This document shows positions 13,847 through 64,000 of a stretch of DNA of 64,000 nt, piece by piece. The stretch is from a virus. Lineage: Duplodnaviria > Caudoviricetes. The notes beneath the pieces were generated by a model. That model was not told the DNA's origin, searched no databases, and saw only the letters and a list, made by a program, of their open reading frames with translations. The stretch covers positions 205-64,204 of the IMG/VR virus record IMGVR_UViG_3300044628_000433. One strand, 5' to 3'. The translations under genes were made by a program, and so were the position numbers. Numbering within the stretch: position 1 is the first letter of the stretch; every line of letters starts with the position of its first letter.

Positions 13847-13871
13847 TCCCTGAGTTAGAGCTAGGAAACAA
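13839..13871 (+). promoter_or_regulatory. Candidate phage RNAP promoter, copy 1
   Basis: ACGAGTAGTCCCTGAGTTAGAGCTAGGAAACAA; 28/33 identical to the copy at 57341. Confidence 0.65.
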
Positions 13872-39629: not shown

Positions 39630-40597
39630 TGCTTAATCAAAACAAACTACAGAAGCTGTTTGAAATTGCTACTGGTCAACAACCAGAAACGCAACGTCTA
39701 ACAGCTGCAAAGAAGAAGACCAACACATTAGATCGTGTAAAGAAGCGTAAGGATATCTTTAAGTCTATCTATAACGATCCGTTTGATGCCTTCGAAAAGT
39801 GGTACCAAGACTCTCTTAAGGATGTCTCTTCAGACAACGCTGATGAGTTTTGGTCTGAAGCTGAGCAGGAGTTTCCCGGCAGTCCCGATCAAGCTAAGGA
39901 TTGGTTACGGTCTCAAGTTAAGAAGCCAACCGATCCAGCTGCACGGGAATCGTCTTTACGAAACACAATGACCAAGGCACCGTCGTGGTTAAACCAAGAG
40001 CTATCCCCAGAGTTAGCAAACACAGAACAAGAAGTAACGTCACAAAATCTCAGCAAGTCACAGCTTGCATATCGCAAGGTTCTTGAAAATAAGATTCAAG
40101 CTTTTAAGTTTGATCAATTAGATCCAGACGTTCCAGCTGAAATTCACGTAGATGACATGATTAAGTTAGAGCTTATGGGCCTACTTGATGGTGCATCAAT
40201 CATTGAGGGACGCTTTGCAACAACAAATAGAGATGGCTCTATTCAACCAGCATTTGCTTTAAGCAATTCTACTGAAGCTAATGGTGTTGGTCTTGGTCCA
40301 GAAACTGAACTCATTACAAAGATGGCTAAGCCATTGTTTGAACGAGCCGTGGTTGATGGACTAGATACGGGTATCGCAACACAGGAAATGAACAACAGAG
40401 CGGTAACAGGTGCTGGCCTACAGATGCTACCAAACATGGATGTATCTGAGTGGTCAACAATCTTAGGCGCAATGCCAAAGCAAGATATTCCAGCTGCTGT
40501 TCAACAGGGCTTTAACAGACGGGCTGAGATAGATCCCTTTGCCTCTGGTGAAGAGATGCTAGCTGATTCCCTATCTATAGAGGACTTACTTAGATGA
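39629..40597 (+). CDS. Probable internal virion protein
   Basis: 322 aa; helical; no Cys; lies between the gp14-like and gp15-like genes. Confidence 0.6.
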   Translation: MLNQNKLQKLFEIATGQQPETQRLTAAKKKTNTLDRVKKRKDIFKSIYNDPFDAFEKWYQDSLKDVSSDNADEFWSEAEQEFPGSPDQAKDWLRSQVKKPTDPAARESSLRNTMTKAPSWLNQELSPELANTEQEVTSQNLSKSQLAYRKVLENKIQAFKFDQLDPDVPAEIHVDDMIKLELMGLLDGASIIEGRFATTNRDGSIQPAFALSNSTEANGVGLGPETELITKMAKPLFERAVVDGLDTGIATQEMNNRAVTGAGLQMLPNMDVSEWSTILGAMPKQDIPAAVQQGFNRRAEIDPFASGEEMLADSLSIEDLLR

Positions 40598-45198: not shown

Positions 45199-48100
45199 AT
45201 GAATAACGATTTAGATCGACTTTTCGAAGAGAACAGCAAACCTCTTCCTTCAAAGTCACCTACCGTAAACTTCACAAATCCAACGTCTATGTATTCTGGT
45301 CAAACACCAGACATGGGCGAACAACAAATCAAGAATGAAAAGATTTCTCTTGGTCTTCTTAGCCCATCCTTTCTAAATGGAAGGTGGAATCTAACTGAAT
45401 CTGGGTTGACCAAAGAAGAAGTAGGCGATACAGCCCTTTCCTTTACTATTGGTGAGGGTTCTAAGGGATGGGGTGAACGCTCCATTCAAAAAGCATACCG
45501 TATGGTGGATCAGTTTGAGAACAAGGGCGATGCCATGTTCACAACGGATAACCGTGAAACTCACCACTGGGAACAGTTTGTAGAAGGTATTAACTTCTTC
45601 AATATTTTTGGAGAGAACGAAACGTTCCGTAGGGCCGATGAAGTTAAGAAGATTCTTAGCACTGTTGACCCAGAGTGGACTTATGAAAAGCAACTATCAG
45701 CCCTTACGGAGTGGCAAGAATCAAACCCAGAAGTAAATGACTTTGTGGCTCAGGCAGGAATTAATATCCAAGATTATGTACTAGAGACACGAAACCAACA
45801 AGCATTTATCTTTAACATTAACGAAGCCGTACAGCAAGCCAGATTAAACATCGGCATGCAACGGTTTGAAAAGGACAATGGAACGTTGTCCAAGCTTGGC
45901 AACTCCTTAATTGAGGGTATAAAAGACCCATTGATCCTCCGGGATATGGCACTCACCAGCGTAGCTACCCTTGGTTTGGGTACCGTGGCTGGCCTTGCTG
46001 GGGTCTCTGCCAGAGCCTTGTCTGGGTCGGTTGCTGCTGGTGTTAATTCCTCCCGCGCCCTTAGGGGTTTAAACCTCGTTAGACAGGCCGCTAACACCGC
46101 CGCGCTAGCGACAGGCCCAATGACTGGTCTCATCGAAGGACCAGCCTACGCGGCTATTAGGGCCGTTGTACCGTCAGCTGGTAGATCAGCTGTCAGTACC
46201 CTGTCAGCCCGTGGATTGGCATTAGCCCTTGAGGGTGGCGTTGCTGGGGCAGTATCGTCCTTGGCAGACCAGAAGGCCGATAACGAATGGCGTTCCTTGG
46301 TCTTTGCAGATACCGAAAAGGCGCTTAAGTATAACCTTGGCGAAACCGCCCTAGCTGCTCTAACTGGCTCCCTTGGTGCCGTTGGTGTTGCAAGCGCAGT
46401 ACGCTTTGGTCTGGGGTCCATCGGTGACTATAAGTATTATAAGACCGGAGACTGGGACGGTTTCCGTAGACAGATTGCAAACTCAATGGATACGTGGGCA
46501 ACCACCAAGGATGGCGATATCGTCTGGGGTAATACCCTTAGCGATGGTCGTGGTATCTTCTTTGGTGATACAGTCGATAAGTTTATGAAGAGCTATGACG
46601 GCAGAGACTTTACAAACGTCATGCTCAATGGCTCACGTCTCTTTGGTAAGTTCAATCCCCGTATTGCGGGTAAGATGAACCTTGACGTTAAGCGCGTCAT
46701 GCCAGTTATCGAAGAGTTTGAGAAGGCAACAGGTGTGGCTGGTGAAGCTGCTATGCTTAGCGTAGATGGCGTAGATCCAGAAACCCGTGGTATCTTTAAT
46801 CAACTTGTTAACGAGTCAAACCTTGCAGATGCAGACCTAACCATTGATGATGTTAAGGCTGTATTGGTTGATTACAATACCAAGCAACAACCACAACCAC
46901 CTACGGCAACTGGTCGGTTACTTACCGAAGCACCAGTAGCCACCCAACAAGTTGAGGTTGCAAGACAACTTAAGAGATTGGTTGCTGCCAAGAGTGTTGA
47001 TAGACGCTTGGAACAAATCGGATTATCATCCGCTACGGTTCTAAACAACGCAGAAGCAACACTTGGTCGCAGTATCAATCTATCGTCAGATGCAGATTTC
47101 CAGAACTTTATTACCGCCGCACGATACGAAGCGGCATCGGTAGATGAATCTCAGGTTGTAAATACCTTTAAGAGAATCGTCACTGGTGACTTTGGTGGCG
47201 GTCGTGTCATTCCAAAGGAAGTTGTTGATAGCATCTTTGTTGCAGCTTTTGGCGATAAGCCAATCGTTGTTACCGCAACGGGTTCAAATAAGAACTTTGC
47301 CGTTGTCGTTGATCCAAAGAATAAGGATGTCTTTGCCACCAAGCGAACCTTGGAGAAGGGCGATGATGGACAACTCAGCATTAAGCTTCGAGCCGATGAT
47401 CCTAAGTCCCCATTCTTCTCAAAGGATGTCCTTACGGTTGATACGGATACCTTGCAAGCAAAGCTTGTTGAGGTAAACGAAAAGCTTAACAAGGCTTGGA
47501 ATGACGTAAAGACGGCTAAGATTAAGGAAACAATTGAAAAGGTAAAGAAGACAAAGGTCAAGGAAGAACTTGTTAAGACCTTTGCTGAAGGTACCTCTGT
47601 AACCGTAGACAGCATTAAGAAGATCTTCGATCTTACTAAGGAAGAGGCTACGGTTGCTAAGATCATCATGGACTCATTAGGTTATGATGGTGATTCTAAT
47701 CTACTTAGAATCGCTTCCCTAGTGGCTGATGATAGAAACGCAGAGATCTTCTTCGAGGGTAACACCGCTCTTATTCGAGCAACCAAGTCTTCAGACGTTG
47801 GTACCGTTACCCACGAAATGTCTCACTACTTACAGGTAATGATTCTTGATGAACTTACTCCAGACGCTCGACATGCCATTGGTATTACAGACGAGATCTG
47901 GGAAAAGTTTAAGGACTGGGTTGGTTATACGGGAACTGAGTGGACCGAAAAGGCAGCAGAGAAGTTCGCTAATGGTATGTCACAATACGTTAGACGAGTT
48001 ATGTCTGGTGATGGTCGCGCTCCTAAGACCCAAGTTCAACGTCTATTCCACAGAATTGGCGACCACCTTGGAGATCTTGGTCAACGCTTCAAGAGCCAAG

Positions 48101-51100
48101 AGGCACTAGAAGCTGGCATGATAATGAGCAAGGAAGCCGAAGATGTATTCGAAGCTTTGTTCAATCGTTCCAACTCTAAGATCGGTGAGTTGTTTGACTC
48201 AGCCTATCAGGGCTTGTTTAAGCGATTGCCAAAGGAACAACGCCTTGCCATTGGTAAGGAAATCCTTGGAGAGATGGCCTTTAACGACTATCTTGCTAAG
48301 AAAGAAATTGAATTCGAAAAGGCTAAGCCAGTTGTAGATAAGCTTGCTGAAGCTGCGGCAACTAAGCCAGTTACTGTAACAAGTGTTGTGAATGAGATCT
48401 ATGAAAAGGTCAACAACGCAACACGTAAGGTCATTAAGGAAGCTATTGCTTCTGGTATGAGCAGAGAATCTGTTCTCACCTTCCTAAAGGACGAAGAAGC
48501 AAAGATTGGTACGGTTACATCTATTGATGCCCGTCCAGCTAATAAGCTTACAAAGCCAACAAAGCTTACAGACGAAGAGCTTGCAAAGTTTGCTGCAATT
48601 GAATCCCCATTCATCAGCGTTGTAGACGATGTAAAGGTTAAGTTTATTGATGCCGCTTTCAAGACTGAAGAGAGTAAGTTATTCTTCAGTAAGGAAGATC
48701 TACAGGATGAGATTAAGAGACGCGCTGCGTCAAAGGTCAGTAAGACTGAAACTGATATCGGTATTTCATCTGAGCTTAAGGCAGACCTTGAAGAACTTCT
48801 TGGTCCAGGAACCTTTGTCGATTCTGCTGGCATGAAGGTAGAACTAACCCCAACTGAAACTGTTGTTGCTACTAAGGTTGCAACCGTAGTTGAAACGGCT
48901 AAGGTAGACAAGGAACACGCTACGGCTGTCATTGCTGCTTTGGAAGAAGGTAGAACACTAGATGCTGTAGAAGCAAAACGTGCGCCTATCGTTACTCCAG
49001 AGGTTATCAATGTTGAAGAAACTCCAGTAAGCGTTGAGACTGAGCTTGTTGCTTTGGCTGCCATCAGTACTGAAGCTTCGGCTACAGCTGACAGCCTAAG
49101 TATTCCTGCAGCAAAGAAGGCCGAAGTTAAGACTGTTGTTGCTGCAGCTGTTGCAAATCCAAGTAGAGCCAAGTCTTTGCTTGAGAAGTATACTACTACA
49201 AAGCTTGAGGATGTTGCTGGTGTTTCTGCTAAAGCGGAAGCTACAACCACAAGACAGCTTCCAAGCGATCTAGTTAAGCAATTCTTTGAAGCTGAATTAC
49301 GCGCTCAAATCTCTAGACACACCATCGAAGGAATTATGGGTCTAGACGATAAGAACTTTAGTCGTTTCCTAGAATTAGAAAAACTAGCTGAAAAGTTTGA
49401 AGGTCCGCTTGATGCTTTAGTTAGAGAACCAACCCCAGAAAATCTACAAGCAACAGCTAATACCATTAACTGGTCAATGGAAGACTTGAAGGTTTACGTC
49501 AGCGGTGCATTGCACAAGCGTAACGGTTCTTTGATTGCAGAGTTTGTTGGAGCTAAGAAATTTGTAGAGCGGAACATTGATACAATTAAAGAAACTAGAA
49601 AATATATTGAGGATAAGAAGTCGGCTTATGATGCAGCTAGAGCTGTACCTGAGGCAAATAGATCTAAGGCTCAAGAAGACTTAATTAAGAAGTATGATAA
49701 AGCCAAGGGAACAGTCAGTCAATTTAATAACTCCATAGAGAGACTAAAGATTGGTGTACTTGGTAACACCGTACTCGAAGTAGTGCCACAGAAAATTAGT
49801 AAAGCTAAGGCTTATCTAGATAAGGGTGAGTCTATTCAAACAAAGTGGTTGCAACTACAGAGCCTTGGCGCAACGGTTCAAGACTTATTATTTAAAAATA
49901 TGATTGAAGCCGATCCAATTACTATTCTCAAAGCAATTGAGAAAAACATTGATCGTCTTGCTGAATTGGTTGAAACAGACGGAGAAGAAGTAGGTTTTCC
50001 GGACTGGAGAGAACTACCTAAGATTGAACTGTGGGCTAATGGATACATGAAATCAAAGGCTGCTTCCTCCTTTGTAAAGAAGATTATTCGTAATCTTGAA
50101 TTAAATGCAAAGCGAAGATTGGAAGGAACCAAGAAGAAGGTTGGAAGTGAAGAGGTAGTGGGTGCTAGTGGTGATGCGGTAAACGTATTAGAGGGATCGC
50201 AAAAGGTTGAAGGGGTGTACACAGACGATGAGAAAAAGGACTTCTACGTAAAGCAACAAGCTGAAAGCGAAGCTCTTAGAAATCTAGCTACACTGTTTCA
50301 TGCTCACCTAGTTGATATTGGTAAGACCGAACTCGCTGCTGTCTTTATGGCAAGACGTGAGGGTATATTACAAAAGGCTTCTGATATTGATAACACAGCA
50401 CGACTTCTAGAGAATTACGGAATTCAACTAACCGTAAATTCTGTTGAGAATCGTATCTCAGATCTTCGTAATGAACTTACAACATTTGTTGATGGTCTAG
50501 CAGAGGACGAAGCTAAGGCAATTCGAAAGCTTCTTGATCTTGAGTTTAAGCCTAAGAAACAAAAAACTCTTGCTCAACGCATCTCTACAGAAGACATGGA
50601 AGATCTATCAGAACGCTTAATGTCAGCTGGACCACTTGATGTCATTCGCGCTCCTGATTATTTAATCAGAGCTGCTCAAGAATCTTCCAGTGATCTCTAT
50701 AGAAGGATTCTTTCAGGTGAACTAGAAAATGGTGTTCAAGTTCTTGAAGAACTAGCGAACAATCCGCAATCAAAGTATAAGACACTTGCTGGTCAAATCC
50801 TAAACGAACATAGAGACTATTTAGAAACGGTCGGTGTTTGGGTAGCAAAGCTTGACGATAATACTGAGGGTCTATACACCTATGACAACATCTTCCTAAA
50901 TGTTAAGGAAGGTACGGTCAATGTACCAGCCCTCATTCACGAAGTCATTCACGCCATAACAACGAAGGAAATAGACGAAGCTGGCTTTACTCAAATAGAA
51001 GGACGTGGACACGTTGCCTATCTAGAAGCACTTCGCAATAGTGTTCAATCCGGTGTTGATCTAAACGGTAAAAAACTAAAGGCAAGTGTCAAGTCAATCG

Positions 51101-54100
51101 CTGCTAGTTATCTAGCAACAGTTGATTGGATTGATCGTACTCCTGAAGCTTTACAGTTATTGGGTTCAGACTATAAAGAAAAGTTTGTTGGTCGAGCTGA
51201 TGCTGTAGAGTTTCCCACAACAACCCACTATGCTTTGATCAATCTTCACGAATTCATTGCAAACACATTGACTGATTCTGATGTTCTCGCTTTCTTTGCT
51301 GGGGCTAAGGCTGCTAGTGGAGCAGCTAAAACAAGACCAGTTAAGGAAATGCTTAATGGTATTTCTAGGTCTATCTTTCCTAGAGCAACCGAAGAACAGA
51401 TAAAGAACGTTGATAAAACACTACAAGAAACTATTGTTTCAAATCTTGTAACTGGTGTGGTCAAGAGTAAGGTAGAACCAGTTGATCAAATGGGCATGGT
51501 ATTAATGCCTGAGCCTACTTATGTTCCCTTTAGATTAGTCGGTACTGAGATTCAAATTCCTGAGGTTGTTAGACTTGGAGATGAAGCTGAACTTCGTTCT
51601 GCTCTCAAATCTGCTAAGGGTAGGGTCTATGCTCAACTTAACAAGATTACGGAAGAAGAAGCTAAGGGTGGGGATTGGACTTTAGATGGTTCTATTCTAG
51701 AAAACGAATATGGTGAAGAATTCGAAGCTTTTGGTTTCGAGGACGGCACAATTGGTGCATTGCTTGCACACAACGAACTTGCGTATAAGGGCGCTACTAA
51801 GTATTTTGAAACACCTGATAAAGTCTTTATTAAGATAAAAACAAACGAAAAACCGTATTCTGACTCAGTAACACAAGCTTTACAACTTATTCTAGACGGT
51901 AGCTTATACGATCTTTTTCCAAAAATGGATTTACAGCAATTGTCGTATGAAAAGTATTCTAATAGTGACTTTGCAAAGCTACCCATTAATGAGCAATTAA
52001 AAACGGCTCAGTACGCATATACAAAAATTACAACTATTCAAAACTTACTACCATACAAACATAAGGTTTTTGAGACACAGAGCAATAATGCAAAAACATT
52101 ATTAGAAGCAGTTACTCAATTAAAATCAGCGTTAGACTTGGCTTTTCCACCCGAACCTACAATATCAAAGGTAGGTGATAGTAAGTATTTTAAGAAGCTT
52201 ACTGAGTTACCTACTATCTTCGATGAGTGGACGGTTGGAATAACCCATAAAGACTTATCAACAAGTGATGGTTATTACTTTAAGGTTAAAGATTATCAGA
52301 AAGATAATGCATTTATATTAAGTGCGCTTCTTACTCAAAAGCCACTAGAGTGGGCTGAAGACAATGGTGAGTTTATGCTTAAGTATACACCAACAATTAG
52401 CGAACTTTCAACAGCTCAACAAACATTGCTGTACTTTTTACTTGGGGAAGTACCAAGTTCTGATAAAGTTCCAATATGGGAACCAACAGTTTCTATACTC
52501 TACGATGTTCACTTAGAAAATTATTTTAAGGAATTTGGTGTGGATGGTATAAAAGCTGTACTTAAGTCTGAAATAGCACTTGACCTTATTCCAGTAGATA
52601 TTGATTCTCAAGTACTAATAGATATTAAAACAAATCTAAAGAAGTTAAGCAACTATTGGTATGATGAATTAGACAAAAAGGGTGTTAATGTAGAAGACGA
52701 TCTTTCTGCTGTTCCTACAGATGATGTACAATTTCTTTTAGATAACTATACCGTAGCAAAACTTGAAGTTGATTCGGTGTTTCCAGAAAACGCCACGATT
52801 ATTGGTCCACAACTTGGATCTAATCCAGGACATCAAGTTGAAATTAATGGTAGCAAGTATTATCTAAAGGCAGCAAAGAGCAAGCGGCATGCTAATATGG
52901 AAAGAGCAGCTCAGTTGCTCTATCGTATGCTTGGTCACGAATCCTTGGTATCTGAATTTACAGATGCTTCAAATCTTGGTTCCGAGTTTAAAACATCCAT
53001 TTTGACTCCCTGGGTAACAACAACCAAGTTTGATTTTGATAATAAGGACCACGCTGCAAAAGCAAAGTTGCTATACATTCCATCAGCTTGGCTTGCAAAT
53101 TGGGATGTCTTTGGTCAAACCTATGACAATGTTTCTGCCGAAGGTGTGATTCTTGATGCCGGAGGATCGCTTGTTTATAGAGCTAGGGGTGGAGAGAAGG
53201 ACTTTTCAAATACCTCTGTTAAGGAATTAGACTCGCTACGAGACCTAAGTAAAAACTTCACAGCAGCTAATATCTTTATGGAGCTAACACCAGAGGAAAT
53301 TAAAAGTCAGATTGCTAATTTAGAAGCAACGGCATCAAATGAACAAATTAGAGATGTTGTATTCAGTGTGTTTGATCTTTCAGATCCCTCTGAAAAAGCA
53401 GACGCTGACAATCTAGTTAAAACATTGATTGCTAGAAAAAACATTATTGTTGCATCTTTAAAGGAATTAGGTTCTATTGAGAGCAGAATGCCAACAGAGC
53501 TTCGTCGTTTTATCAAAATGCCAACTACGGCAGCCGAAGAAGATATCTTTTACATAAGAGAAGCAGCCAAAACCTTTGAAAACGCATCGCTAGAGGATAA
53601 GCAAAAAGCATTGGAATTTATGCACACCGTTCTAGCCAATGCTGACATGAGTGGAGAACTTCTTCGTTCTAATTTCTATAATGCTTATACAGAGTTTCGC
53701 TTAAAGTTATTGGGTGGTACTCAACTTAATAGAAGAGAACTTATTTCTAAATTCTTTACCAATGATAGTGGTAGAGATATTGCTATTAGAGATGAACTTG
53801 GAATGCCAATTACGTTTTATCGTGGAACTAATAGGCCAGATGTTGATGCTCAAAACGGCGATGAAGTAAGTAAAGGTTCTTGGTGGGGAACCGATCTAAA
53901 CGTTGCTAGAGATTATGGCGGCGGAAGATCTATTATGAGTGCTTATGCTGCCGTTCCACCAGAACGTATTAAGGTTGTTAAGCTTCGTGAAATGACACAT
54001 TGGTCACACGTAAAGAAATCAGATATCCTTGATCCAGAAGTTGTAAAGTATTTAGAAGATCGAAACTTTAACTTTGGTGGTAAAGTAGATGACATTGCAT

Positions 54101-57100
54101 TTGCTTACTTAGATCTTGTTGAAGATAAATATGATGCTGTACGATTGCTCGATGTTAAGGATTATGCAAAGCTTGGTTCAAAGAAAATTCCACACGATCA
54201 GTGGGTATTCAGACCAGATAAGCAACTCTTAAAGAATCGCAATGCTCTTGAGTTTAAGAAGACAGGATCACAAAATCTTCTATCGCAAAAGCGAGCTGTG
54301 CAAATCACAAGAGATATCATTGATGTCGCTAAGTCGGTTGGTGCAGACACGAAGGAACTAGAAGCAAAGCTTGCTGAGCTTGTTGACTCCGCTGAGGTTC
54401 GTAGACGTAATCTACTAGCTGCTGGCTTACATGAAGAAATGGAACCAGAAGATCTAGAGATTATCAATAGTATGATCAAGGGAACGAAGGCGTTTAGTCA
54501 GCCAGCCGTTGATCACCTCACACGAAGAACCAAGCCATCAGCTACCGTGGCTGCGGCTTCTAGAATTAAGTTCTCAGGTAAGAACTACAGAGACTTGACA
54601 GATGACGAAAGACGATCTTTCGTTAGTGACGTATTGCTTCCAACAGTAGAAGAAAAGCTTGGCAATAGAAACCGCAGTGCTGGTATCTATTCATTGATTA
54701 CCGACTCCAAGGTTGGTAAGGGCTTTAACTCTCTCGTTGGTGGTGGTGCCGCTTACGGCGATACTGCCGATGCTCAGTCAATGATGCTACAGTTCTTCTC
54801 AAAGATTTACGATCCTCTTATGGATCTTAGAGATGGTGAGCTATCAGGTACATTCGATCTCTTCTCCGTTGACATGGTTAACGCAGAAACAAATAACATG
54901 TACAGTGCAGCTGGTCTCTTGGATATCCAGAGAAAGATTACAGCTCAGGTCACAAAGACCGCAGAGTTGGAACAGCTATACGAAACAGCTTGGCTATACC
55001 TTGCTGATCTAGAGAGCTTACCAAGTAATGCCGTCCACAGAGAATTGATTGTGGAACTCATTAAGGGTGTCCACAAGTACAATACCTTGGTATCTGGCTT
55101 ACTTGAGAAGTATGGTACGTTGGTTACGCCAATGAAGCCAACAGAGTACGGTACAATCCACAAGGTCAACATGTTAGCCTTCGAGCAACAAGACCAGTTC
55201 GTTGATGCCCTTGTTAAGCATGCCTTGGCAAAGGAACGAGAAAGCAAGGATCTATCCATCATTACGTTGGATGCCTTGGGCTGGGTAAAGCTTACAAGAG
55301 ATTCGGTTTCTGACGATATCGTATCTGTTGAGGTTAAGGAAGGTTCACCTCTTGGTTATGAACCAGCTGTCTACAAGTATTCTGAATTCAAGAATATGGC
55401 TAAGAAAGCCTCACTTGGTAAGGATGCGTTGACTATCTATGAGGATGCCTTAGTGTCTTCTAGAAACTACGTCAACTGGGATATCTATCGGTCACGTGGT
55501 GATAACTATACGGCTCTTAGACATACGATGACCGTAGCTAAGAACCGATACCTCAACATCGACTCTCCAGAATCCCGTGGCGGTAAGCCACGTACTGAAG
55601 GTGTTGGTGGTGGACGTGAAATGGATATTACCAGAATCTTGTCCCACAACGATATCGCAAAGAATCCAGAACTTGCCAAGTACTTTGATAAGGATATCTA
55701 CGGATTGATCTATCAACAGTTACGAAGCAGTGTAACCGATGCCATTATGACCAAGTATATCACAGATATGTTTGGTGTTAAGATGTCATTCTTGGATCTC
55801 GTTGAGGTTTCTAGAAAGCACGGTGAGGCAAGCAGAGGTCAACTCGCTAAGACTGAACAGGATTCAGTAAACCGTGGTTATGACAGAATTAAGGATATCT
55901 GGGAATCAAATACCGGAAAGTTAATGGCAAGTAGAGACGGTCTAGATCGTCACTATAGGTCATTGCTTGAATCTGGCTCTAGACCCCTTGTCCTTTCAGC
56001 AAGTGGTCTCAGAGCGGCTTTAACCTCAACTGGTGAAACCGCAAGAGCTATCCTCGCTAGTAACCATAACCGTGGTATGCTACGTCAAGTAATTCCTAAC
56101 TTCATCCAGACCCTAAAGCTATTTAGTCGGGATAAGAGACAGACCATCCAGCAAGTAGCATCCGCTACTCACTGGCTCCGTGGTCTATCTTCTGACCACC
56201 TATTGTTAAGAGCTGAGATGAACCCAAACAATCCATTCGGTGGAACAATCATGGGTTCTAAGCAGGGTGGCTGGTTTAAGAGTTGGGCTGCATCTTGGGC
56301 AGGAGCTAAGGAACGAAACAAGTTAGAAGACTCTATTGTTGGTAAGGCAGCTAACTATCTGTCTATCCCAGCAAGTAGACTAGGCGCTCCTCTTGCTTTC
56401 GTAAACGATGTAACGACTACATTGCATGTCCAGAATATGCAATACAACCTTACAACAAACTCTTCAAAGTTCATGGCTCTTGCTAAAGCATTGAAGACAT
56501 CTAACCCAGAATCATTGTCTGACTTTGCATCTCTAGCTAAAAAGTGTGGTCTATCCCCCAAGGAAGCTATAGATCTATCTGCTCTGGGTTTATTAGACCC
56601 AGCTAGAATCCAAGTTATGATTGATGCAGCTAAGGACCAACGTAACTATTCCGAAGGTCTATTGGATATCCAACGTCTATTCCTATGGGCTGATGGAGAT
56701 CCCATCAGGATAGATACCATTAACCGTATGGGTGCCTTGGTAAACGCTACTACAAGACACACCAATACTGATCCTACCTTATTGGATCTACGGATTAATC
56801 AATCCCCCTATGCTAGATCTATGGGTGTATTCATGCAGTTCTTGCTTAGTCACTCTACCCAAGAAATAGGTAGACGTAGACGTTATACAACTACTGCATA
56901 CTCTAAGCACCTCGCTGGTCTAGTTATGATGGAATCTATTGCCTATAGCTTGGCTAGACCCAAGGATGACGATGATGATAGCTGGATCTGGGAAGACGCT
57001 AAGGAGAAACCAATCCAAACGGTAATTAAGGTAGGTACCTCTCTCCCTCTCTTGGGAAGCTATCAGTACCTATCTGCTCTTATCCGTATGGGTCTACTAG

Positions 57101-57222
57101 AAACCCACTCTCAGATTACTGGAGAGAAGTCAGATGAACGATATAGAATTCCTGATCTTTACTCTGGTCCTTCAGAGAACGTACCAAAGAAAGCTTTGGA
57201 TATGATCAAGGATCTATTGTAA
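45199..57222 (+). CDS. Giant multidomain internal virion protein (gp16-like polyvalent protein; 4007 aa)
   Basis: Gly/Ala-rich membrane-inserting N-region; two HEXXH motifs; sigma-like, kinase-like and ART-like segments; gp16-like C-terminus (MQF...LPLLG). Confidence 0.85.
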   Translation: MNNDLDRLFEENSKPLPSKSPTVNFTNPTSMYSGQTPDMGEQQIKNEKISLGLLSPSFLNGRWNLTESGLTKEEVGDTALSFTIGEGSKGWGERSIQKAYRMVDQFENKGDAMFTTDNRETHHWEQFVEGINFFNIFGENETFRRADEVKKILSTVDPEWTYEKQLSALTEWQESNPEVNDFVAQAGINIQDYVLETRNQQAFIFNINEAVQQARLNIGMQRFEKDNGTLSKLGNSLIEGIKDPLILRDMALTSVATLGLGTVAGLAGVSARALSGSVAAGVNSSRALRGLNLVRQAANTAALATGPMTGLIEGPAYAAIRAVVPSAGRSAVSTLSARGLALALEGGVAGAVSSLADQKADNEWRSLVFADTEKALKYNLGETALAALTGSLGAVGVASAVRFGLGSIGDYKYYKTGDWDGFRRQIANSMDTWATTKDGDIVWGNTLSDGRGIFFGDTVDKFMKSYDGRDFTNVMLNGSRLFGKFNPRIAGKMNLDVKRVMPVIEEFEKATGVAGEAAMLSVDGVDPETRGIFNQLVNESNLADADLTIDDVKAVLVDYNTKQQPQPPTATGRLLTEAPVATQQVEVARQLKRLVAAKSVDRRLEQIGLSSATVLNNAEATLGRSINLSSDADFQNFITAARYEAASVDESQVVNTFKRIVTGDFGGGRVIPKEVVDSIFVAAFGDKPIVVTATGSNKNFAVVVDPKNKDVFATKRTLEKGDDGQLSIKLRADDPKSPFFSKDVLTVDTDTLQAKLVEVNEKLNKAWNDVKTAKIKETIEKVKKTKVKEELVKTFAEGTSVTVDSIKKIFDLTKEEATVAKIIMDSLGYDGDSNLLRIASLVADDRNAEIFFEGNTALIRATKSSDVGTVTHEMSHYLQVMILDELTPDARHAIGITDEIWEKFKDWVGYTGTEWTEKAAEKFANGMSQYVRRVMSGDGRAPKTQVQRLFHRIGDHLGDLGQRFKSQEALEAGMIMSKEAEDVFEALFNRSNSKIGELFDSAYQGLFKRLPKEQRLAIGKEILGEMAFNDYLAKKEIEFEKAKPVVDKLAEAAATKPVTVTSVVNEIYEKVNNATRKVIKEAIASGMSRESVLTFLKDEEAKIGTVTSIDARPANKLTKPTKLTDEELAKFAAIESPFISVVDDVKVKFIDAAFKTEESKLFFSKEDLQDEIKRRAASKVSKTETDIGISSELKADLEELLGPGTFVDSAGMKVELTPTETVVATKVATVVETAKVDKEHATAVIAALEEGRTLDAVEAKRAPIVTPEVINVEETPVSVETELVALAAISTEASATADSLSIPAAKKAEVKTVVAAAVANPSRAKSLLEKYTTTKLEDVAGVSAKAEATTTRQLPSDLVKQFFEAELRAQISRHTIEGIMGLDDKNFSRFLELEKLAEKFEGPLDALVREPTPENLQATANTINWSMEDLKVYVSGALHKRNGSLIAEFVGAKKFVERNIDTIKETRKYIEDKKSAYDAARAVPEANRSKAQEDLIKKYDKAKGTVSQFNNSIERLKIGVLGNTVLEVVPQKISKAKAYLDKGESIQTKWLQLQSLGATVQDLLFKNMIEADPITILKAIEKNIDRLAELVETDGEEVGFPDWRELPKIELWANGYMKSKAASSFVKKIIRNLELNAKRRLEGTKKKVGSEEVVGASGDAVNVLEGSQKVEGVYTDDEKKDFYVKQQAESEALRNLATLFHAHLVDIGKTELAAVFMARREGILQKASDIDNTARLLENYGIQLTVNSVENRISDLRNELTTFVDGLAEDEAKAIRKLLDLEFKPKKQKTLAQRISTEDMEDLSERLMSAGPLDVIRAPDYLIRAAQESSSDLYRRILSGELENGVQVLEELANNPQSKYKTLAGQILNEHRDYLETVGVWVAKLDDNTEGLYTYDNIFLNVKEGTVNVPALIHEVIHAITTKEIDEAGFTQIEGRGHVAYLEALRNSVQSGVDLNGKKLKASVKSIAASYLATVDWIDRTPEALQLLGSDYKEKFVGRADAVEFPTTTHYALINLHEFIANTLTDSDVLAFFAGAKAASGAAKTRPVKEMLNGISRSIFPRATEEQIKNVDKTLQETIVSNLVTGVVKSKVEPVDQMGMVLMPEPTYVPFRLVGTEIQIPEVVRLGDEAELRSALKSAKGRVYAQLNKITEEEAKGGDWTLDGSILENEYGEEFEAFGFEDGTIGALLAHNELAYKGATKYFETPDKVFIKIKTNEKPYSDSVTQALQLILDGSLYDLFPKMDLQQLSYEKYSNSDFAKLPINEQLKTAQYAYTKITTIQNLLPYKHKVFETQSNNAKTLLEAVTQLKSALDLAFPPEPTISKVGDSKYFKKLTELPTIFDEWTVGITHKDLSTSDGYYFKVKDYQKDNAFILSALLTQKPLEWAEDNGEFMLKYTPTISELSTAQQTLLYFLLGEVPSSDKVPIWEPTVSILYDVHLENYFKEFGVDGIKAVLKSEIALDLIPVDIDSQVLIDIKTNLKKLSNYWYDELDKKGVNVEDDLSAVPTDDVQFLLDNYTVAKLEVDSVFPENATIIGPQLGSNPGHQVEINGSKYYLKAAKSKRHANMERAAQLLYRMLGHESLVSEFTDASNLGSEFKTSILTPWVTTTKFDFDNKDHAAKAKLLYIPSAWLANWDVFGQTYDNVSAEGVILDAGGSLVYRARGGEKDFSNTSVKELDSLRDLSKNFTAANIFMELTPEEIKSQIANLEATASNEQIRDVVFSVFDLSDPSEKADADNLVKTLIARKNIIVASLKELGSIESRMPTELRRFIKMPTTAAEEDIFYIREAAKTFENASLEDKQKALEFMHTVLANADMSGELLRSNFYNAYTEFRLKLLGGTQLNRRELISKFFTNDSGRDIAIRDELGMPITFYRGTNRPDVDAQNGDEVSKGSWWGTDLNVARDYGGGRSIMSAYAAVPPERIKVVKLREMTHWSHVKKSDILDPEVVKYLEDRNFNFGGKVDDIAFAYLDLVEDKYDAVRLLDVKDYAKLGSKKIPHDQWVFRPDKQLLKNRNALEFKKTGSQNLLSQKRAVQITRDIIDVAKSVGADTKELEAKLAELVDSAEVRRRNLLAAGLHEEMEPEDLEIINSMIKGTKAFSQPAVDHLTRRTKPSATVAAASRIKFSGKNYRDLTDDERRSFVSDVLLPTVEEKLGNRNRSAGIYSLITDSKVGKGFNSLVGGGAAYGDTADAQSMMLQFFSKIYDPLMDLRDGELSGTFDLFSVDMVNAETNNMYSAAGLLDIQRKITAQVTKTAELEQLYETAWLYLADLESLPSNAVHRELIVELIKGVHKYNTLVSGLLEKYGTLVTPMKPTEYGTIHKVNMLAFEQQDQFVDALVKHALAKERESKDLSIITLDALGWVKLTRDSVSDDIVSVEVKEGSPLGYEPAVYKYSEFKNMAKKASLGKDALTIYEDALVSSRNYVNWDIYRSRGDNYTALRHTMTVAKNRYLNIDSPESRGGKPRTEGVGGGREMDITRILSHNDIAKNPELAKYFDKDIYGLIYQQLRSSVTDAIMTKYITDMFGVKMSFLDLVEVSRKHGEASRGQLAKTEQDSVNRGYDRIKDIWESNTGKLMASRDGLDRHYRSLLESGSRPLVLSASGLRAALTSTGETARAILASNHNRGMLRQVIPNFIQTLKLFSRDKRQTIQQVASATHWLRGLSSDHLLLRAEMNPNNPFGGTIMGSKQGGWFKSWAASWAGAKERNKLEDSIVGKAANYLSIPASRLGAPLAFVNDVTTTLHVQNMQYNLTTNSSKFMALAKALKTSNPESLSDFASLAKKCGLSPKEAIDLSALGLLDPARIQVMIDAAKDQRNYSEGLLDIQRLFLWADGDPIRIDTINRMGALVNATTRHTNTDPTLLDLRINQSPYARSMGVFMQFLLSHSTQEIGRRRRYTTTAYSKHLAGLVMMESIAYSLARPKDDDDDSWIWEDAKEKPIQTVIKVGTSLPLLGSYQYLSALIRMGLLETHSQITGEKSDERYRIPDLYSGPSENVPKKALDMIKDLL

Positions 57223-57237
57223 TCTAGCTAGAATGCC

Positions 57238-57300
57238 ATTAGAGACGTTCCTGCAGTTAAGACCCCCATCCATAGGGGTAGACTCAGGAACGTCTCTAAT
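57238..57300. repeat. Long inverted repeat after the last gene
   Basis: ATTAGAGACGTTCCTG / CAGGAACGTCTCTAAT, perfect 16 bp. Confidence 0.9.
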
Positions 57301-57340
57301 AGGCTTATAGGAGGTTTATTGGGGTGGGGTATTTACCTAG

Positions 57341-57373
57341 ACGAGCAGTCCCTGATTTGGTGCTAGGGAACAA
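57341..57373 (+). promoter_or_regulatory. Candidate phage RNAP promoter, copy 2 (phi-OR-like position)
   Basis: ACGAGCAGTCCCTGATTTGGTGCTAGGGAACAA. Confidence 0.65.
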
Positions 57374-57459
57374 CCTAGCTGTGATGGAACACAATAAAAC
57401 AAGAGCGGACTCTCCACTAGGGGAGAGTCTAGGAAAGATAGTAAGGGGAGTATCTAGGG

Positions 57460-57570
57460 ATAACGTAAGGAAGTAACGTAGGATTGTCTTAGAATAATAA
57501 CGTTACATAAACCCATAACATAAAACACATAGGGAAGTCCTAAGGATATACCCCATACATAACCATTTCA
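57460..57570. repeat. Short AT-rich iterated repeats (TAACGTA / CATAA)
   Basis: TAACGTA twice, TAACGTT, TAACATA and several CATAA; comparable to short-repeat arrays near T7-like termini. Confidence 0.55.
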
Positions 57571-57656
57571 CTTTGGAGTTGATCGTTTGGGGACAACGCC
57601 CGATAGCTCCAAAGCCGCCTCAGGTACATTCCCCCGTCTGTATCCTGAGTCTATCT

Positions 57657-57692
57657 ATCCCGCTTCCCCTTAACGGGGGAGGTGGGGTTTTC
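57657..57692 (+). terminator. Rho-independent terminator near the genome end
   Basis: ATCCCGCTTCCCCT-TAAC-GGGGGAGGTGGGGT followed by TTTC; G-U pairs favour + strand RNA. Confidence 0.65.
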
Positions 57693-57837
57693 TAAGAAAA
57701 CGTTTTAGGTATCGAAAATTTTAGGAGGGTACCCCCTTCCCCCACCGGGTATTGGCGTCCCCCTCTACCCCCCCGGCCCTGCGGGAAATTTACCCGGCCT
57801 GCGGCTGCTTACCCCCCCTCGGGACAGTCTAGTATCA

Positions 57838-58225
57838 GCGATCTTCCGCAGAGAGTGACCCTTGGGGTGTTACTGCGGAGGGGATCGCAAGGATAGCCGC
57901 GCCTACTTTGTAGGTTTTATGTTACGGGCTACCTTCCCAAACCTTCGGTTTGAAAGTTACTGAAGCCTAACATGTCGTGACGAGCGGCGATAGGGTATGA
58001 TCCTGCGATACGTTCGCAGGGGTGAATCATCCCGCGTCAAGTCTCAAGTGCGATCTCGGAGACGAGTGAGGCTAGGTAACGAATAAGATCGAAGGCAGTC
58101 TACCGCGTAGGGTGTCATCCTACGTTGAAATTCCCGCAACAAAGTCTTTGTTTCAAACATTGACGCGGGAACGTTGGAAACGACGTTCCTGCGATTCGTT
58201 TCAAGGGATGTTCCCTTGAAACTTT
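57838..58225 (+). ncRNA. Large structured RNA / early leader candidate
   Basis: Dense helices, including TCCCGCGTCAA(58030)/TTGACGCGGGA(58160); no credible ORF. Confidence 0.55.
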
Positions 58226-58251
58226 CCGAAACTTTCACGGAGTTATCTACC

Positions 58252-58641
58252 ATGTCTACCTTCAACATGCCGAATGTCGAATCTTTCCGCCGTGTGTTTC
58301 TCCCTACGTTTGTTTCATACCTTCAGGAGAACGGCAAGTTCTCTGTTAGTGGTGACTTGAAGTTGTCGTGTGTGAATTCGTTGGGTGATGTTCCCGTCTT
58401 TGTTTCGGGAACTAAATTGACCTTCCGCAGTGTGGTCGCAGGGAAGAATGGCGTCGAATGTGCGTCGCAAGTCAATTGGCGCGAAGTCGATACTGCGGGA
58501 ACGTTGGCGCAAGTCGCACGGGACTATCTCGTGTCCGAATTGGAGCGTGAAGTTCCCGAATGGTTCAATAACGAGCGCAAGGTCTATAAGTCTGGCCGTG
58601 GTGCTGTTAGTGTGGACGTGCTTGAATCGCTCGGCCTCTAA
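58252..58641 (+). CDS. First early protein (hypothetical)
   Basis: GGAG SD; ATG at 58252. Confidence 0.75.
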   Translation: MSTFNMPNVESFRRVFLPTFVSYLQENGKFSVSGDLKLSCVNSLGDVPVFVSGTKLTFRSVVAGKNGVECASQVNWREVDTAGTLAQVARDYLVSELEREVPEWFNNERKVYKSGRGAVSVDVLESLGL

Positions 58642-58662
58642 TCGCCAGCGTGTGTTCTCTTC

Positions 58663-58697
58663 AGGGTGTCGGGGGTGAAATTATCCCCCGATACTCT
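58663..58697 (+). repeat. Early-region UGAAA-loop hairpin, copy A
   Basis: AGGGTGTCGGGGG-TGAAATTAT-CCCCCGATACTCT. Confidence 0.85.
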
Positions 58698-58736
58698 TTC
58701 CGTCTAAATTGTTCGCCCCTAACGTTGGGAGTCAAT

Positions 58737-58940
58737 ATGTCCAAAGTCAATCCAAAGGTACGGGATGTCATGGCACCGATTGTGCAAGCGCAAGTAAAGG
58801 CGGCGTGTGAACTTCGCACGGAACGTGCCTTGCGTGAAGCATTGGATAGTGTTGTCAAGTGGTCTGGACAATCGCGGACAAAGTGTTTCGCGGCATTGTG
58901 TGTCAAGTATCCGCAATTCAAACAATTAGGGAGTCTCTAA
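58737..58940 (+). CDS. Early hypothetical protein
   Basis: GGGAG SD; MSKVNPK... Confidence 0.7.
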   Translation: MSKVNPKVRDVMAPIVQAQVKAACELRTERALREALDSVVKWSGQSRTKCFAALCVKYPQFKQLGSL

Positions 58941-59260
58941 TGGTCAAGCCAATTCACTACCTTCGAACGTGTGTAGGGAATGTGTCTCGGATTGTTCCTG
59001 CGGAGTATGTCCACAATCGGGAACAATGCGAAACGTGCGGGGATTATATCTCCGTCAAGTGTGTGGTGGCATTGGTTTGGGCCGATGTCGATAGGCCAAT
59101 TGAGTGGGGACGTGTGAATCCCGCAGGTGTCGGGATTAGTTGGGAGGATATTGAGTTGGCCGACTTTGTTCACACAAAGTGTCCTGCTCCCGTGTGGATT
59201 GTTCCACACGGATTCAACGTCGAAGATATCGACGCACACTGGGGCGTAGATTGTGACTAA
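58940..59260 (+). CDS. Early hypothetical protein with CxxC...HxxC (possible Zn binding)
   Basis: GGGAG SD; TAATG overlap; CETCG and HTKC. Confidence 0.7.
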   Translation: MVKPIHYLRTCVGNVSRIVPAEYVHNREQCETCGDYISVKCVVALVWADVDRPIEWGRVNPAGVGISWEDIELADFVHTKCPAPVWIVPHGFNVEDIDAHWGVDCD

Positions 59261-59262
59261 TC

Positions 59263-59297
59263 AGGAATGTTCGGGTGAAAGTATCCCGAACGTTTCT
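59263..59297 (+). repeat. Early-region UGAAA-loop hairpin, copy B
   Basis: AGGAATGTTCGGG-TGAAAGTAT-CCCGAACGTTTCT. Confidence 0.85.
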
Positions 59298-59334
59298 TTC
59301 ATCGTGTGTCTTCTCGCAACTTTGGAGTCAAACA

Positions 59335-59433
59335 ATGTACGTGACTGAATTGTTCTTCTACTGTGCCGTGGCAATGTTTGTGACGGGATGTATCTACGTG
59401 GCTGGCAACATGATCTCTAACCTTGAGGATTGA
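59335..59433 (+). CDS. 32-aa single-TM peptide (not in ORF track)
   Basis: GGAG SD; MYVTELFFYCAVAMFVTGCIYVAGNMISNLED. Confidence 0.6.
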   Translation: MYVTELFFYCAVAMFVTGCIYVAGNMISNLED

Positions 59434-59435
59434 TA

Positions 59436-59762
59436 ATGCGTCAAATTGAACGTGCAATGTGCATCGCAATTCGTTCGAACAAATCTTTCAAGCGTGGAAA
59501 TACGGAAGTGTTGGTGACAAACAACGGTGCGGAGGTGTTCCTGCACGGGAATAGTATCGCACGATATCACCGTCCGTCACACACTATGTTTGTGACGTTG
59601 TGTGGGTGGAATACTAGCACAACAAAGTCACGAATCAATGCCCTGCTTGATTCGTTCGGGACTGGTGTACGAGTGTACACTAAGAAGTTTGAGCCACACT
59701 ATATGGTGTGTGGTCAATCGTTTGAATTTGAGAGCGAAGGACATATCTTCCTCTGTAACTAA
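59436..59762 (+). CDS. Early protein of a widespread phage type (LHGN..IA...GW...TTKSRINAL)
   Basis: GAGG SD; motif pattern. Confidence 0.75.
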   Translation: MRQIERAMCIAIRSNKSFKRGNTEVLVTNNGAEVFLHGNSIARYHRPSHTMFVTLCGWNTSTTKSRINALLDSFGTGVRVYTKKFEPHYMVCGQSFEFESEGHIFLCN

Positions 59763-59766
59763 TCTC

Positions 59767-59798
59767 GGAATGTGTGGGTGAAATACCCCACACCTTCC
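59767..59798 (+). repeat. Early-region UGAAA-loop hairpin, copy C
   Basis: GGAATGTGTGGG-TGAAATAC-CCCACACCTTCC. Confidence 0.85.
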
Positions 59799-59816
59799 TT
59801 TACTCTGTCTGTAGAC

Positions 59817-63113: not shown

Positions 63114-63142
63114 ACCACCAGTCCCTGATTCCGTGCTAGGAA
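63114..63142 (+). promoter_or_regulatory. Candidate phage RNAP promoter, copy 3 (upstream of the RNAP gene)
   Basis: ACCACCAGTCCCTGATTCCGTGCTAGGAA. Confidence 0.6.
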
Positions 63143-63189: not shown

Positions 63190-64000
63190 ATGAACAATCT
63201 CTGTTATGGTAAGAAGTGGATAGCAGAAAAGAATAAGGAACATAAACTTAATCTTAATGCTGTCATAGAAGAAGCAATGGCTGATAAGTCTATCATGGAT
63301 TACTGTAAGGAACGTAATAGAATCCTTGGAGTACCTGAAACAGATTTATGTTATGCTCTGGTAGACAAGACTGAACAAGCCATTGAGGAATATCTTAGCG
63401 AGTTATCTAAGAGAAACCTTTCTTGGATTACCCCGATCTACAAACTTGGATCTAGGACTGTCTCTGCTATCATTGTCTCTACGTATTTGGATTTTGTGTT
63501 TGTTGATGGCTCTCTTCCTAAGTTACAGTCAGTCATCAAACATATGCGTGTCAACCTTGAACTCGCAAGTACATTCCATCAGACACGTTCAGACAACTCA
63601 GGTGCATGGGTTCTTGCTTCACGTTCTCTTGGTACAAAGTGGACGAAGCGTCAGATGCAACAGTTTATGAAGACACACAGTGCATCTGTTGATTGCAGAA
63701 TCCCAAAGAAGGATGGAGATACCTTGTGTCTTCATCTTATCGAGGTGTTAATCAAGGTAGGGTTGTGTGTTGAACGTCACTCTTACGACAGTAAGGGAAA
63801 CAGGACAACGTGGTTGATGCCATCTAATTCTGTCACGGACAACTTGAATGCCGTGCATGAAGAACTTATGGCAATGGCAAAGATTATCTATGCCCCCATG
63901 ATTGTTCCACCAGTACGTCACACAATCAACGAGTGTGGTGGTACACATTCACCACATCTCCGCAAGGGTATTGTGTCATCGTCGTATCTCTTCTTTCAAG
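63190..64000 (+). CDS. T7-like RNA polymerase, N-terminal part (continues across the overlap to 1701)
   Basis: Open from ATG 63190 (MNNLCYGKKW...) to ...KIIYAPMIVPP, matching the T7 P-x-x-VPP segment. Confidence 0.9.
   Translation, partial: MNNLCYGKKWIAEKNKEHKLNLNAVIEEAMADKSIMDYCKERNRILGVPETDLCYALVDKTEQAIEEYLSELSKRNLSWITPIYKLGSRTVSAIIVSTYLDFVFVDGSLPKLQSVIKHMRVNLELASTFHQTRSDNSGAWVLASRSLGTKWTKRQMQQFMKTHSASVDCRIPKKDGDTLCLHLIEVLIKVGLCVERHSYDSKGNRTTWLMPSNSVTDNLNAVHEELMAMAKIIYAPMIVPPVRHTINECGGTHSPHLRKGIVSSSYLFFQ
63886..64000. repeat. Terminal overlap of circular assembly (identical to 1-115)
   Basis: Exact sequence match. Confidence 0.97.

Follow-up and report, generated by a model that had tools for sequence, protein, structure and literature searches.

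In bacteriophage T7, a long non-coding stretch at the left end of the genome separates the terminal-repeat region from the first early gene; 925 non-coding nucleotides (nt) with the promoters A1-A3 precede gene 0.3, and the RNase III site R0.3 belongs to the same end. Other described systems with which a hairpin-rich stretch may be compared are Rho-independent terminators and attenuators, the hairpin promoters of N4, with stems of 5-7 bp, and RNA anti-CRISPRs, i.e., solitary repeat units; many CRISPR repeats start with GTTTC and end with GAAAC. This study deals with positions 57838-58225 of a 64,000-nt stretch of DNA (the window; bases 205-64204 of one 64,204-bp contig) from an uncultured freshwater T7-like podophage. 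A preliminary description, made from the letters alone, had proposed that this segment is a ~390-nt highly structured RNA, either a large new non-coding RNA (ncRNA) or a switchable leader. Here, positions 57838-58251 are read, at about even confidence, as the early operon's 5' leader, untranslated and modular, at the leading end of the genome, and not as a single ncRNA.

The locus has the layout and the genome position of the T7 left end. Positions 57223-58251 form the sole ~1-kb gap between open reading frames (ORFs) in the window; the gap is non-coding, is bounded by the stop codon of a 4007-amino-acid (aa) ORF and by a 129-aa early ORF, and has its final ~390 bases filled by 57838-58225. 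All long ORFs of the window lie on the plus strand, and downstream of the 129-aa ORF small orphan ORFs extend to the gene for a T7-type RNA polymerase (RNAP) at 63190. The proposed leader is non-coding and co-oriented with these genes; it comes after the genome-end repeats and is immediately followed by the first of the ORFs that precede the RNAP gene, with which the RNAP-proximal early block begins. The assignment to the start of the early region holds. As in T7, the leader would be the part of the genome to enter the cell first, and it has long irregular hairpins on the transcribed strand, with more of them at early-gene boundaries. Unlike the T7 left end, to which it has no sequence similarity, it shows no recognisable sigma-70-type promoters. 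We know of no description for T7 of the cassette swapping among near-identical relatives that is reported below.

Comparison with close relatives reveals a mosaic. Relative L024 is 97% identical to the window over 55652-57839 and 88-89% identical again from 58094-58110 on, with ~100 unrelated bases between these points in place of ~255-270 bases of the window. The L024-type allele is also carried by L001, whose contig ends at the equivalent of ~57797, and the flanks of the replaced segment are 95-97% identical in these two nearest relatives. In the DNA run X18, a contig matches the window as far as 57831, from where it runs on into a third sequence, and the same run also contains a window-type piece covering 57959-58121. 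At least three alleles are present, with common sharp breakpoints at 57831-57840 and ~58100. Positions 57840-58093 are matched by 0 of the 82 related loci, many of which do not reach the region, and a blastn search with 57200-58700 against 50,697 phage records gave no match. No conserved ORF was found in the variable cassette, and a 74-aa minus-strand ORF at 58044-58268 is frameshifted in L001 by a 4-nt deletion. With about two thirds of its length (57840-~58100) swapped for unrelated sequence in L001 and L024, one ~390-nt ncRNA of defined architecture is not supported.

Near-identical lake phages hence exchange a non-coding cassette at sharp breakpoints near the leading end and keep a small set of hairpins, which may constitute a defined set of elements for the control of early expression. 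The 18-nt motif GTGACCCTTGGGGTGTTA at the apex of domain 1 (Table 1) occurs once in the window, against 0.01 copies expected by chance, and is 18/18 identical in L001 and L024, where it is found atop a hairpin too. The surrounding stem differs: in a hand comparison, outward from the loop, TTCCGCAG/CTGCGGAG of the window stands against CTTCGGA/TCCGAAG in L001/L024, with 7/7 pairs changed on both sides and all still Watson-Crick. The position of the hairpin differs as well, i.e., at the 5' edge of the segment in the window and immediately upstream of the 3' module in L001/L024. A degenerate second copy in the window (58097-58126) is identical to the L001/L024 motif hairpin at ~20/30 positions, with no internal gaps (hand count). 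The 3' module itself, from ~58125 to the ATG, is ~96% conserved in L001/L024. Its 13-bp hairpin, with a GAAA loop that we take to be a GNRA-type tetraloop, is identical in both relatives, and the sole substitution in its 11-bp hairpin, A58203G in L001 and L024, turns an A-U pair into G.U; L001 has a 4-nt deletion following the latter hairpin, and in L024 a 5-nt change beside the 13-bp hairpin destroys the 3' arm of the long-range helix discussed below. Exact scans of viral contigs for GTGACCCTTGGGGTGTTA and for the 13-bp hairpin found the L001 contig only. Kinship of GTGACCCTTGGGGTGTTA with the T7 terminal repeat was also considered, and its likeness to T7 positions 109-137 (TGACCCTTGGG, 11 nt, GTGTTAC) was rejected as a family trait; a gapped-pattern scan of viral contigs for the T7-like GTGACCCTTGGGGTGTTA pattern returned 19 stretches, two of which are T7 itself, and the other 17, judged from their flanks, are without comparable non-coding context and lie mostly in coding sequence of unrelated phages.

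All helices named in the preliminary description are present in the sequence, two of them also in an inverted-repeat listing; the GAAA hairpin has 13 bp and not the 12 bp ascribed to it. The loop complementarity CGATCT/AGATCG is likewise there, but 6 nt are too short for it to be assessed and it lies within the non-conserved part. The expectation that the segment folds better than chance was borne out, as the whole region reached -159.7 kcal/mol on the plus strand against -122.5 +/- 5.9 kcal/mol for dinucleotide shuffles (z score -6.35, 0/100 as good). The minus strand gave z -7.34 (0/100 shuffles as good), and such an excess on both strands reflects palindrome content, without strand specificity at full length; the minimum free energy is 18 kcal/mol lower on the plus strand than on the minus strand. 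When single modules were each folded alone (200 shuffles), the strongest signals came from the 13-bp GAAA hairpin (-23.4 kcal/mol, z -7.5), the 11-bp hairpin (z -5.5) and 58000-58022 (z -5.1), followed by domain 1 (-25.7 kcal/mol, z -3.9, 0/200 as good) and by 58028-58172 (z -3.4, 1/200), which then forms the 11-bp long-range helix, while domain 2 was chance-like (z -1.8, 10/200). Sliding segments of 150 nt gave z -1.3 to -2.3 on the plus strand over 57825-58124, and z -5.1 on the plus and -3.8 on the minus strand for 58125-58274. The fold signal of 57838-58225 is that of a few strong local hairpins, with no single architecture. Leaders of relatives that are not homologous to that of the window are hairpin-rich too, if less so (plus/minus strand: L024, z -3.8/-2.8; L030, -2.7/-3.4; L038, -2.7/-2.0), the window allele being the most structured among the leaders examined. 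In L030, whose first ORF is homologous to the 129-aa ORF of the window (both start MST..PNVESFR), a perfect 9-bp hairpin lies ~35 nt before the ATG, just ahead of the ribosome-binding site. Structure biased to the plus strand recurs at later early-gene boundaries of the window (58575-58724, z -4.1/-1.0; 59025-59174, z -4.1/-0.7).

The conserved hairpins themselves bear hints of plus-strand RNA. Three of their pairs, G58167.U58190 and U58175.G58182 in the 13-bp hairpin and U57844.G57880 in domain 1, are G.U pairs on the plus strand; these, as well as the G.U-creating change A58203G, would give A.C mismatches on the minus strand, or would be mispaired in a cruciform of DNA, which favours hairpins structured as plus-strand RNA, with few events behind it. 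The earlier failure to match the segment to tmRNA, RNase P, SRP or intron cores was borne out, and no other known RNA family matches: an Rfam search of the whole window at gathering threshold returned two tRNAs only, the five weak matches obtained at E<=10 on 57150-58300 are far below gathering and none is inside 57838-58225, and ARAGORN found no tmRNA.

As a modular leader, 57838-58251 would sit a little inward of what is probably the leading (left) end of the genome and would be an array of stem-loops that fold independently, built from three kinds of part. These would be a conserved 3' module (~58125-58251) with the 13-bp GAAA hairpin, the 11-bp hairpin and the ribosome-binding site; the motif hairpin, of which the 18-nt apical part is fixed and the stem free to vary; and ~200-250 nt of allele-specific filler, swapped by recombination among close relatives. 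By analogy with T7, the hairpins may serve in the processing or the stabilisation of the plus-strand early transcript. Their long, irregular duplexes would be akin to RNase III sites such as R0.3, and domain 1, with 14 + 4 bp, has the shape of such a site (an irregular duplex of ~20 bp, interrupted by an internal loop and lying on the mRNA strand); its L024 counterpart has 7 + 4 bp. Stable hairpins upstream of the ribosome-binding site could protect the 5' end of the mRNA, or could weakly terminate or insulate transcription coming from the genome-end region. What had been taken for a large new phage ncRNA would then shrink to an early leader of modular build, an element of a kind already known.

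Several points weigh against this reading. No transcription start is located for 57838-58251; a consensus scan of the plus strand over 57200-58260 found no sigma-70-like promoter, whereby the consensus may not be that of the host, and the best relaxed match scored 8/12 (57972/57996). With an equal fold excess on both strands at full length, the palindromes may act in DNA. The covariation in the leader is that of two or three lineages only, and the differing stems around GTGACCCTTGGGGTGTTA could have come from recombination instead of compensatory substitution. The U-tract after the 13-bp hairpin is poor, and RNase III cleavage, termination and mRNA stabilisation are suggested by analogy with T7 alone. 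Contigs from the RNA runs X19, X20 and X22 over 56800-59800 include none on 57838-58225, which was not counted against transcription.

The same palindromes could instead work at the DNA level, as an early promoter or operator array or as origin or end-processing signals, in the form of protein-binding inverted repeats or cruciforms. This would fit the minus-strand fold excess, which is as strong as that on the plus strand, the five GTTTCAA/TTGAAAC half-sites between 58125 and 58232, the adjoining C-rich repeats, in which 6 of the 18 examined contig starts lie, and the promoters A1-A3 in the equivalent stretch of T7. It would also fit the -35-like motif TCTTTGACA, which the X18 allele and six distant relatives, chosen by eye from all TTTGACA occurrences, have in the equivalent region; TCTTTGACA may be an early promoter element of the phage family. 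However, the window and L024 alleles are without TCTTTGACA, no sigma-70-type promoter was found in the window allele, the G.U pairs and the G.U-creating change would be mismatched in DNA or on the other strand, and a GAAA-loop hairpin is typical of RNA, so that we regard a role in DNA as unlikely, if still deserving some weight. A switchable attenuator or antiterminator, in which the 13-bp hairpin and its U-rich tail would be a terminator gating the entry of RNA polymerase to the early genes, appears improbable. As in Rho-independent terminators, a G+C-rich stem is followed by a U-containing tail and is listed by a terminator scan (58164-58193); its 5' half could be opened, as in attenuators, by pairing with 58030-40 or with TTCCCGC at 58131-37, since two pairings of the window allele, the 11-bp helix (58030-40/58160-70) and TTCCCGC/GCGGGAA (7 bp), overlap the 5' arm, and the long-range helix does form when 58028-58172 is folded alone. 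On the other hand, the 11-bp repeat, although real, is left out of the minimum-energy fold of the whole region, which picks the 13-bp hairpin, as does the fold of 58125-58195 (ensemble frequency 0.46). L001 and L024 both lack its 5' arm (58030-40), its 3' arm (58160-70) is kept in L001 and altered in L024, and the competition with the GAAA hairpin described earlier is therefore not conserved. Moreover, and unlike in known terminators and attenuators, the tail AUUCGUUUC is a weak U-tract with no run of at least four U beside the stem, no riboswitch, ligand-binding or leader family is matched in Rfam, and no leader peptide is evident. Of the switchable leader first suggested, the leader fares well, given its conserved plus-strand hairpins, while the switch pairing, whose 11-bp helix exists only in the window allele, does not.

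Loci for host interaction that evolve fast at the leading end of phage genomes commonly show allele swapping at sharp breakpoints, and the cassette 57840-~58100 could accordingly be an allele-specific, free-standing structured early RNA, e.g., a decoy against host defence. At least three alleles with sharp conserved breakpoints in near-identical phages, the want of a conserved ORF and the highly structured window allele would agree with it; the cassette-specific part, however, folds near chance (z -1.3 to -2.3 in sliding segments, -1.8 for domain 2), has no homologue among the 82 loci and 50,697 phage records and no Rfam match at E<=10, and has no detected promoter or terminator bracketing it, and we give such an RNA little credence. 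Nothing in the evidence supports the antiterminator, decoy or ribozyme roles that the preliminary description had put forward. A bolder variant, in which the cassette would be an RNA counter-defence hot-spot, each allele a different early RNA decoying or blocking host defence and the motif hairpin a shared handle for processing or recognition, is a long shot. At the other extreme, the hairpins might be functionless save for the ribosome-binding site, as neutral palindromic debris of genome-end recombination. A chance-like central part that is freely replaced in relatives and a degenerate duplicate of the motif hairpin are what such debris would leave behind, but not a 3' module ~96% conserved next to a hypervariable segment, nor GTGACCCTTGGGGTGTTA kept with re-paired stems, nor single hairpins with z -5 to -7.5; mere debris is hard to credit.

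Among the other described systems, N4-like hairpin promoters share with this locus short hairpins with 3-nt loops where the early region begins (57901-15, 57938-52 and 58198-58222), as well as a giant protein, of 4007 aa, encoded just upstream. Unlike in N4, the early genes of the window phage are followed by an ordinary T7-type RNAP gene, the stems reach 13 bp, and of the three triloop hairpins two belong to the part that is not conserved. An N4-type virion RNAP was sought and not found: neither the 4007-aa nor the 1519-aa ORF has a match in Pfam or PHROGs, in which a very distant RNAP domain could be missed, and the only RNAP is the T7-type gene. RNA anti-CRISPRs resemble the locus in their small hairpins in a non-coding early region, and the 11-bp hairpin starts with GTTTC and ends with GAAAC; the stems are, unlike theirs, longer than typical repeats. 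Mimicry of CRISPR repeats or other host elements was likewise rejected, with no Rfam CRISPR-DR match at E<=10 and no exact match to either conserved hairpin in 185,579 species (one genome each). In the literature, nothing relevant was found on a structured leader or ncRNA in such phages, which may still exist in print.

Table 1. Features of the leader, of the upstream element and of the surrounding genome (window coordinates unless a relative is named).
Feature	Position	Strand	Basis or remark
Left recombination breakpoint	57831..57840		Upstream 95-97% conserved, alleles diverge downstream; L024 matches to 57839, X18 to 57831
Domain 1, 14-bp interrupted hairpin carrying the motif loop (copy A)	57838..57888	+	U57844.G57880 wobble
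Domain 1 helix GCGATC/GATCGC	57838-43 with 57883-88	+	
Domain 1 helix TTCCGCAG/CTGCGGAG	57844-51 with 57873-80	+	
18-nt apical motif GTGACCCTTGGGGTGTTA	57855..57872	+	Inner ACCC/GGGU stem
Domain 2 helices GCCGC/GCGGC, ATGTTA/TAACAT, GGCT/AGCC, CAAACC/GGTTTG		+	Same nesting when folded alone
Allele-specific filler (domain 2, 58002-58020 hairpin, 5' arm of 11-bp long-range helix)	57889..58096	+	
Helix CCTGCGA/TCGCAGG	58002-08 with 58014-20	+	
Perfect 11-bp long-range repeat (I13)	58030-40 with 58160-70		Inverted-repeat listing
Loop segments CGATCT and AGATCG	58051 and 58086		
Degenerate second motif-hairpin copy, now CGTAGG/CCTACG	58097..58126	+	z -2.5 alone
Small hairpin UUGAAAU/GUUUCAA enclosing AACAAAG/CUUUGUU	58125..58156	+	Conserved in L001, L024
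13-bp GAAA-tetraloop hairpin with two G.U pairs, then AUUCGUUUC; terminator-like	58164..58193	+	Terminator scan
Perfect 11-bp hairpin, UGU loop, 30 nt before start codon	58198..58222	+	
Arms GTTTCAAGGGA/TCCCTTGAAAC of the 11-bp hairpin (I14)	58198-58208 with 58212-58222		Inverted-repeat listing
GGAG ribosome-binding site (58239-42) and ATG	58239..58254	+	Sequence
First early ORF, 129 aa, orphan	58252-58641	+	No Pfam or PHROG family
~30-bp hairpin with covarying pairs, directly after stop codon	57228-57310		
Invariant block CTCTAATAGGCTTATAGGAGG	57294-57314		
Invariant run CCCCCGTCTGT	57633-43		
14-bp hairpin, then UUUU	57657-57691		
RNA contig, run X20	57288-57589		
RNA contig, run X22	57308-57484		
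RNA contig, run X19	57332-57614		
27-nt motif (57341-57367 in the upstream element); core AGTCCCTGAkTnnGkGCTAGG	13845-13865, 57347-57367, 63120-63140	+ only	
C-rich direct repeats (TACCCCC-type; families D1, D12, D19)	57730..57835		End at left boundary of cassette
tRNA-Asn(GTT)	L079 270-344		
tRNA-Asn(GTT)	L071 1242-1316		
tRNA-Asn(GTT)	L102 81-155		
tRNA-Asn(GTT)	L067 893-967		
tRNA-Asn(GTT)	L048 1210-1283		
1519-aa ORF	40594-45153	+	No Pfam or PHROG family
4007-aa ORF, last late ORF	45199-57222	+	No Pfam or PHROG family
T7-type single-subunit RNAP	gene at 63190	+	Pfam
T7-type primase-helicase		+	Pfam
Family A DNA polymerase		+	Pfam
Ribonucleotide reductase		+	Pfam
Portal, major capsid and nozzle proteins		+	Pfam
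Tail fibre with Mtd N-terminal domain		+	Pfam
T7-type large terminase		+	Pfam

The part of the gap upstream of the leader, 57223-~57775, is far better conserved than 57838-58225. It is 95% identical to L024 in a sensitive search, with 97% mean column identity in a MAFFT alignment of 57200-57845 and zero differences across 57256-57527, and it is still 71% identical in L030 (RNAP identity 81%) and 62% in L031 (RNAP identity 51%). RNAalifold predicted 107 pairs from four sequences, with 92.1% of the cells paired; both partners have changed in 15 pairs, where shuffled alignments gave 6.3 +/- 1.8 (0/500) and slid controls at most four, a count made over four sequences from three lineages with the structure derived from the same sequences. 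The fold of 57280-57700 is biased to the plus strand (z -6.0 on plus, -2.3 on minus). Contigs from RNA libraries within 56800-59800 fall only on 57288-57614, at 100% identity and with bare flanks in all three runs; such contigs show neither strand nor exact ends, and some carry-over of DNA is possible. An exact-block scan for further homologues returned the known contigs plus L106, which is the same as L030 in the compared stretch. In L038 (187-831), an extra 214-aa ORF lies inside the equivalent of the element and separates a CATTTCACT-like block from the terminator-like hairpin.

Positions 57223-57700 are a candidate new phage ncRNA, or else a candidate abundant promoter-to-pause transcript at the concatemer junction, and the element at 57230-57690 is a better RNA-gene candidate than 57838-58225. 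The element, which is conserved, structured and found in RNA libraries, comes from a large family of uncultured T7-like phages of 60-69 kb and is the more promising target for ncRNA work. In T7, any base change is stated to abolish the RNAP class II signal ATCTGTT of the concatemer junction (10.1101/2021.01.11.426313); CCCCCGTCTGT is loosely like this signal and, given that intolerance in T7, only a lead. The 27-nt motif is present in three copies in the window, against 0.02 expected, i.e., before a gene block starting near 13881, within the upstream element, and 50 nt ahead of the gene for RNAP. This motif recurs at equivalent sites of L030, L028, L026 and L027, in relatives with RNAP identity of at least 81% and not in the 51% relative, and is probably a promoter of the phage's own RNAP. 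CTCTAATAGGCTTATAGGAGG and TTAGGTATCGAAAATTT were rejected as repeated phage promoters, each being single-copy in the window.

Between the upstream element and the leader (57705-57835), the single-copy motif TTAGGTATCGAAAATTT (CTTAGGGGTCAAAAATT-like elsewhere) is followed by C-rich TACCCCCC-type repeats. The motif is common to 15 of the 82 loci (3 in full length, 12 in part), at RNAP identities down to ~39%, and motif and repeats occur together in L038, L079, L071, L102, L077, L069, L078, L052, L067 and L048. The C-rich repeats probably mark the physical genome end, the terminal repeat or the packaging signals, or else are a tract that breaks assemblies. A tRNA-Asn(GTT) was found in 5 of the 12 relatives scanned, at the place of the 3' hairpin of the upstream element of the window and directly before the shared motif; with a tRNA in this place, the site looks like a slot for RNA genes at the end of the late region. 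TCTTTGACA is found at L038 1134, L048 1459, L071 1518, L078 1983, L075 233 and L086 2132; in several distant relatives it lies 150-200 nt past the C-rich repeats, in the X18 allele 18 nt past the breakpoint, and it is not followed by a TATAAT-like -10 at 16-18 nt.

The window encodes, in this order, RNAP, primase-helicase, PolA, portal, capsid, nozzle and terminase. Its positions 1-115 are identical to 63886-64000; the contig hence closes into a circle, with the junction inside the RNAP gene, and the 204 bases that come before the window in the contig take no part in this 115-nt overlap. Cultured phages are remote (terminase at best ~40% identity, RNAP at most 34%), and many uncultured relatives exist, with RNAP identities of 98%, 80-83%, ~60% and 42-50% and many contigs of 60-69 kb; the sequencing runs that contain 57838-58225 are labelled lake or fresh water. 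For the 129-aa first early protein, only relatives at 88% identity or above were found, and for the C-terminus of the 4007-aa ORF protein-anchored searches found no viral loci. Both the 4007-aa and the 1519-aa ORFs follow the terminase genes, the site of the internal virion proteins in T7. The 13-mer GCGGGAACGTTGG of the 5' arm of the 13-bp hairpin (58165-58177) is repeated exactly within the first early ORF (58495-58507). Lastly, another 13-mer, TTCAGAAGCTTAT, is present in three copies (10792, 18916 and 41460), and its 11-nt core in four, adding 25753, all of them within coding sequence on the plus strand.

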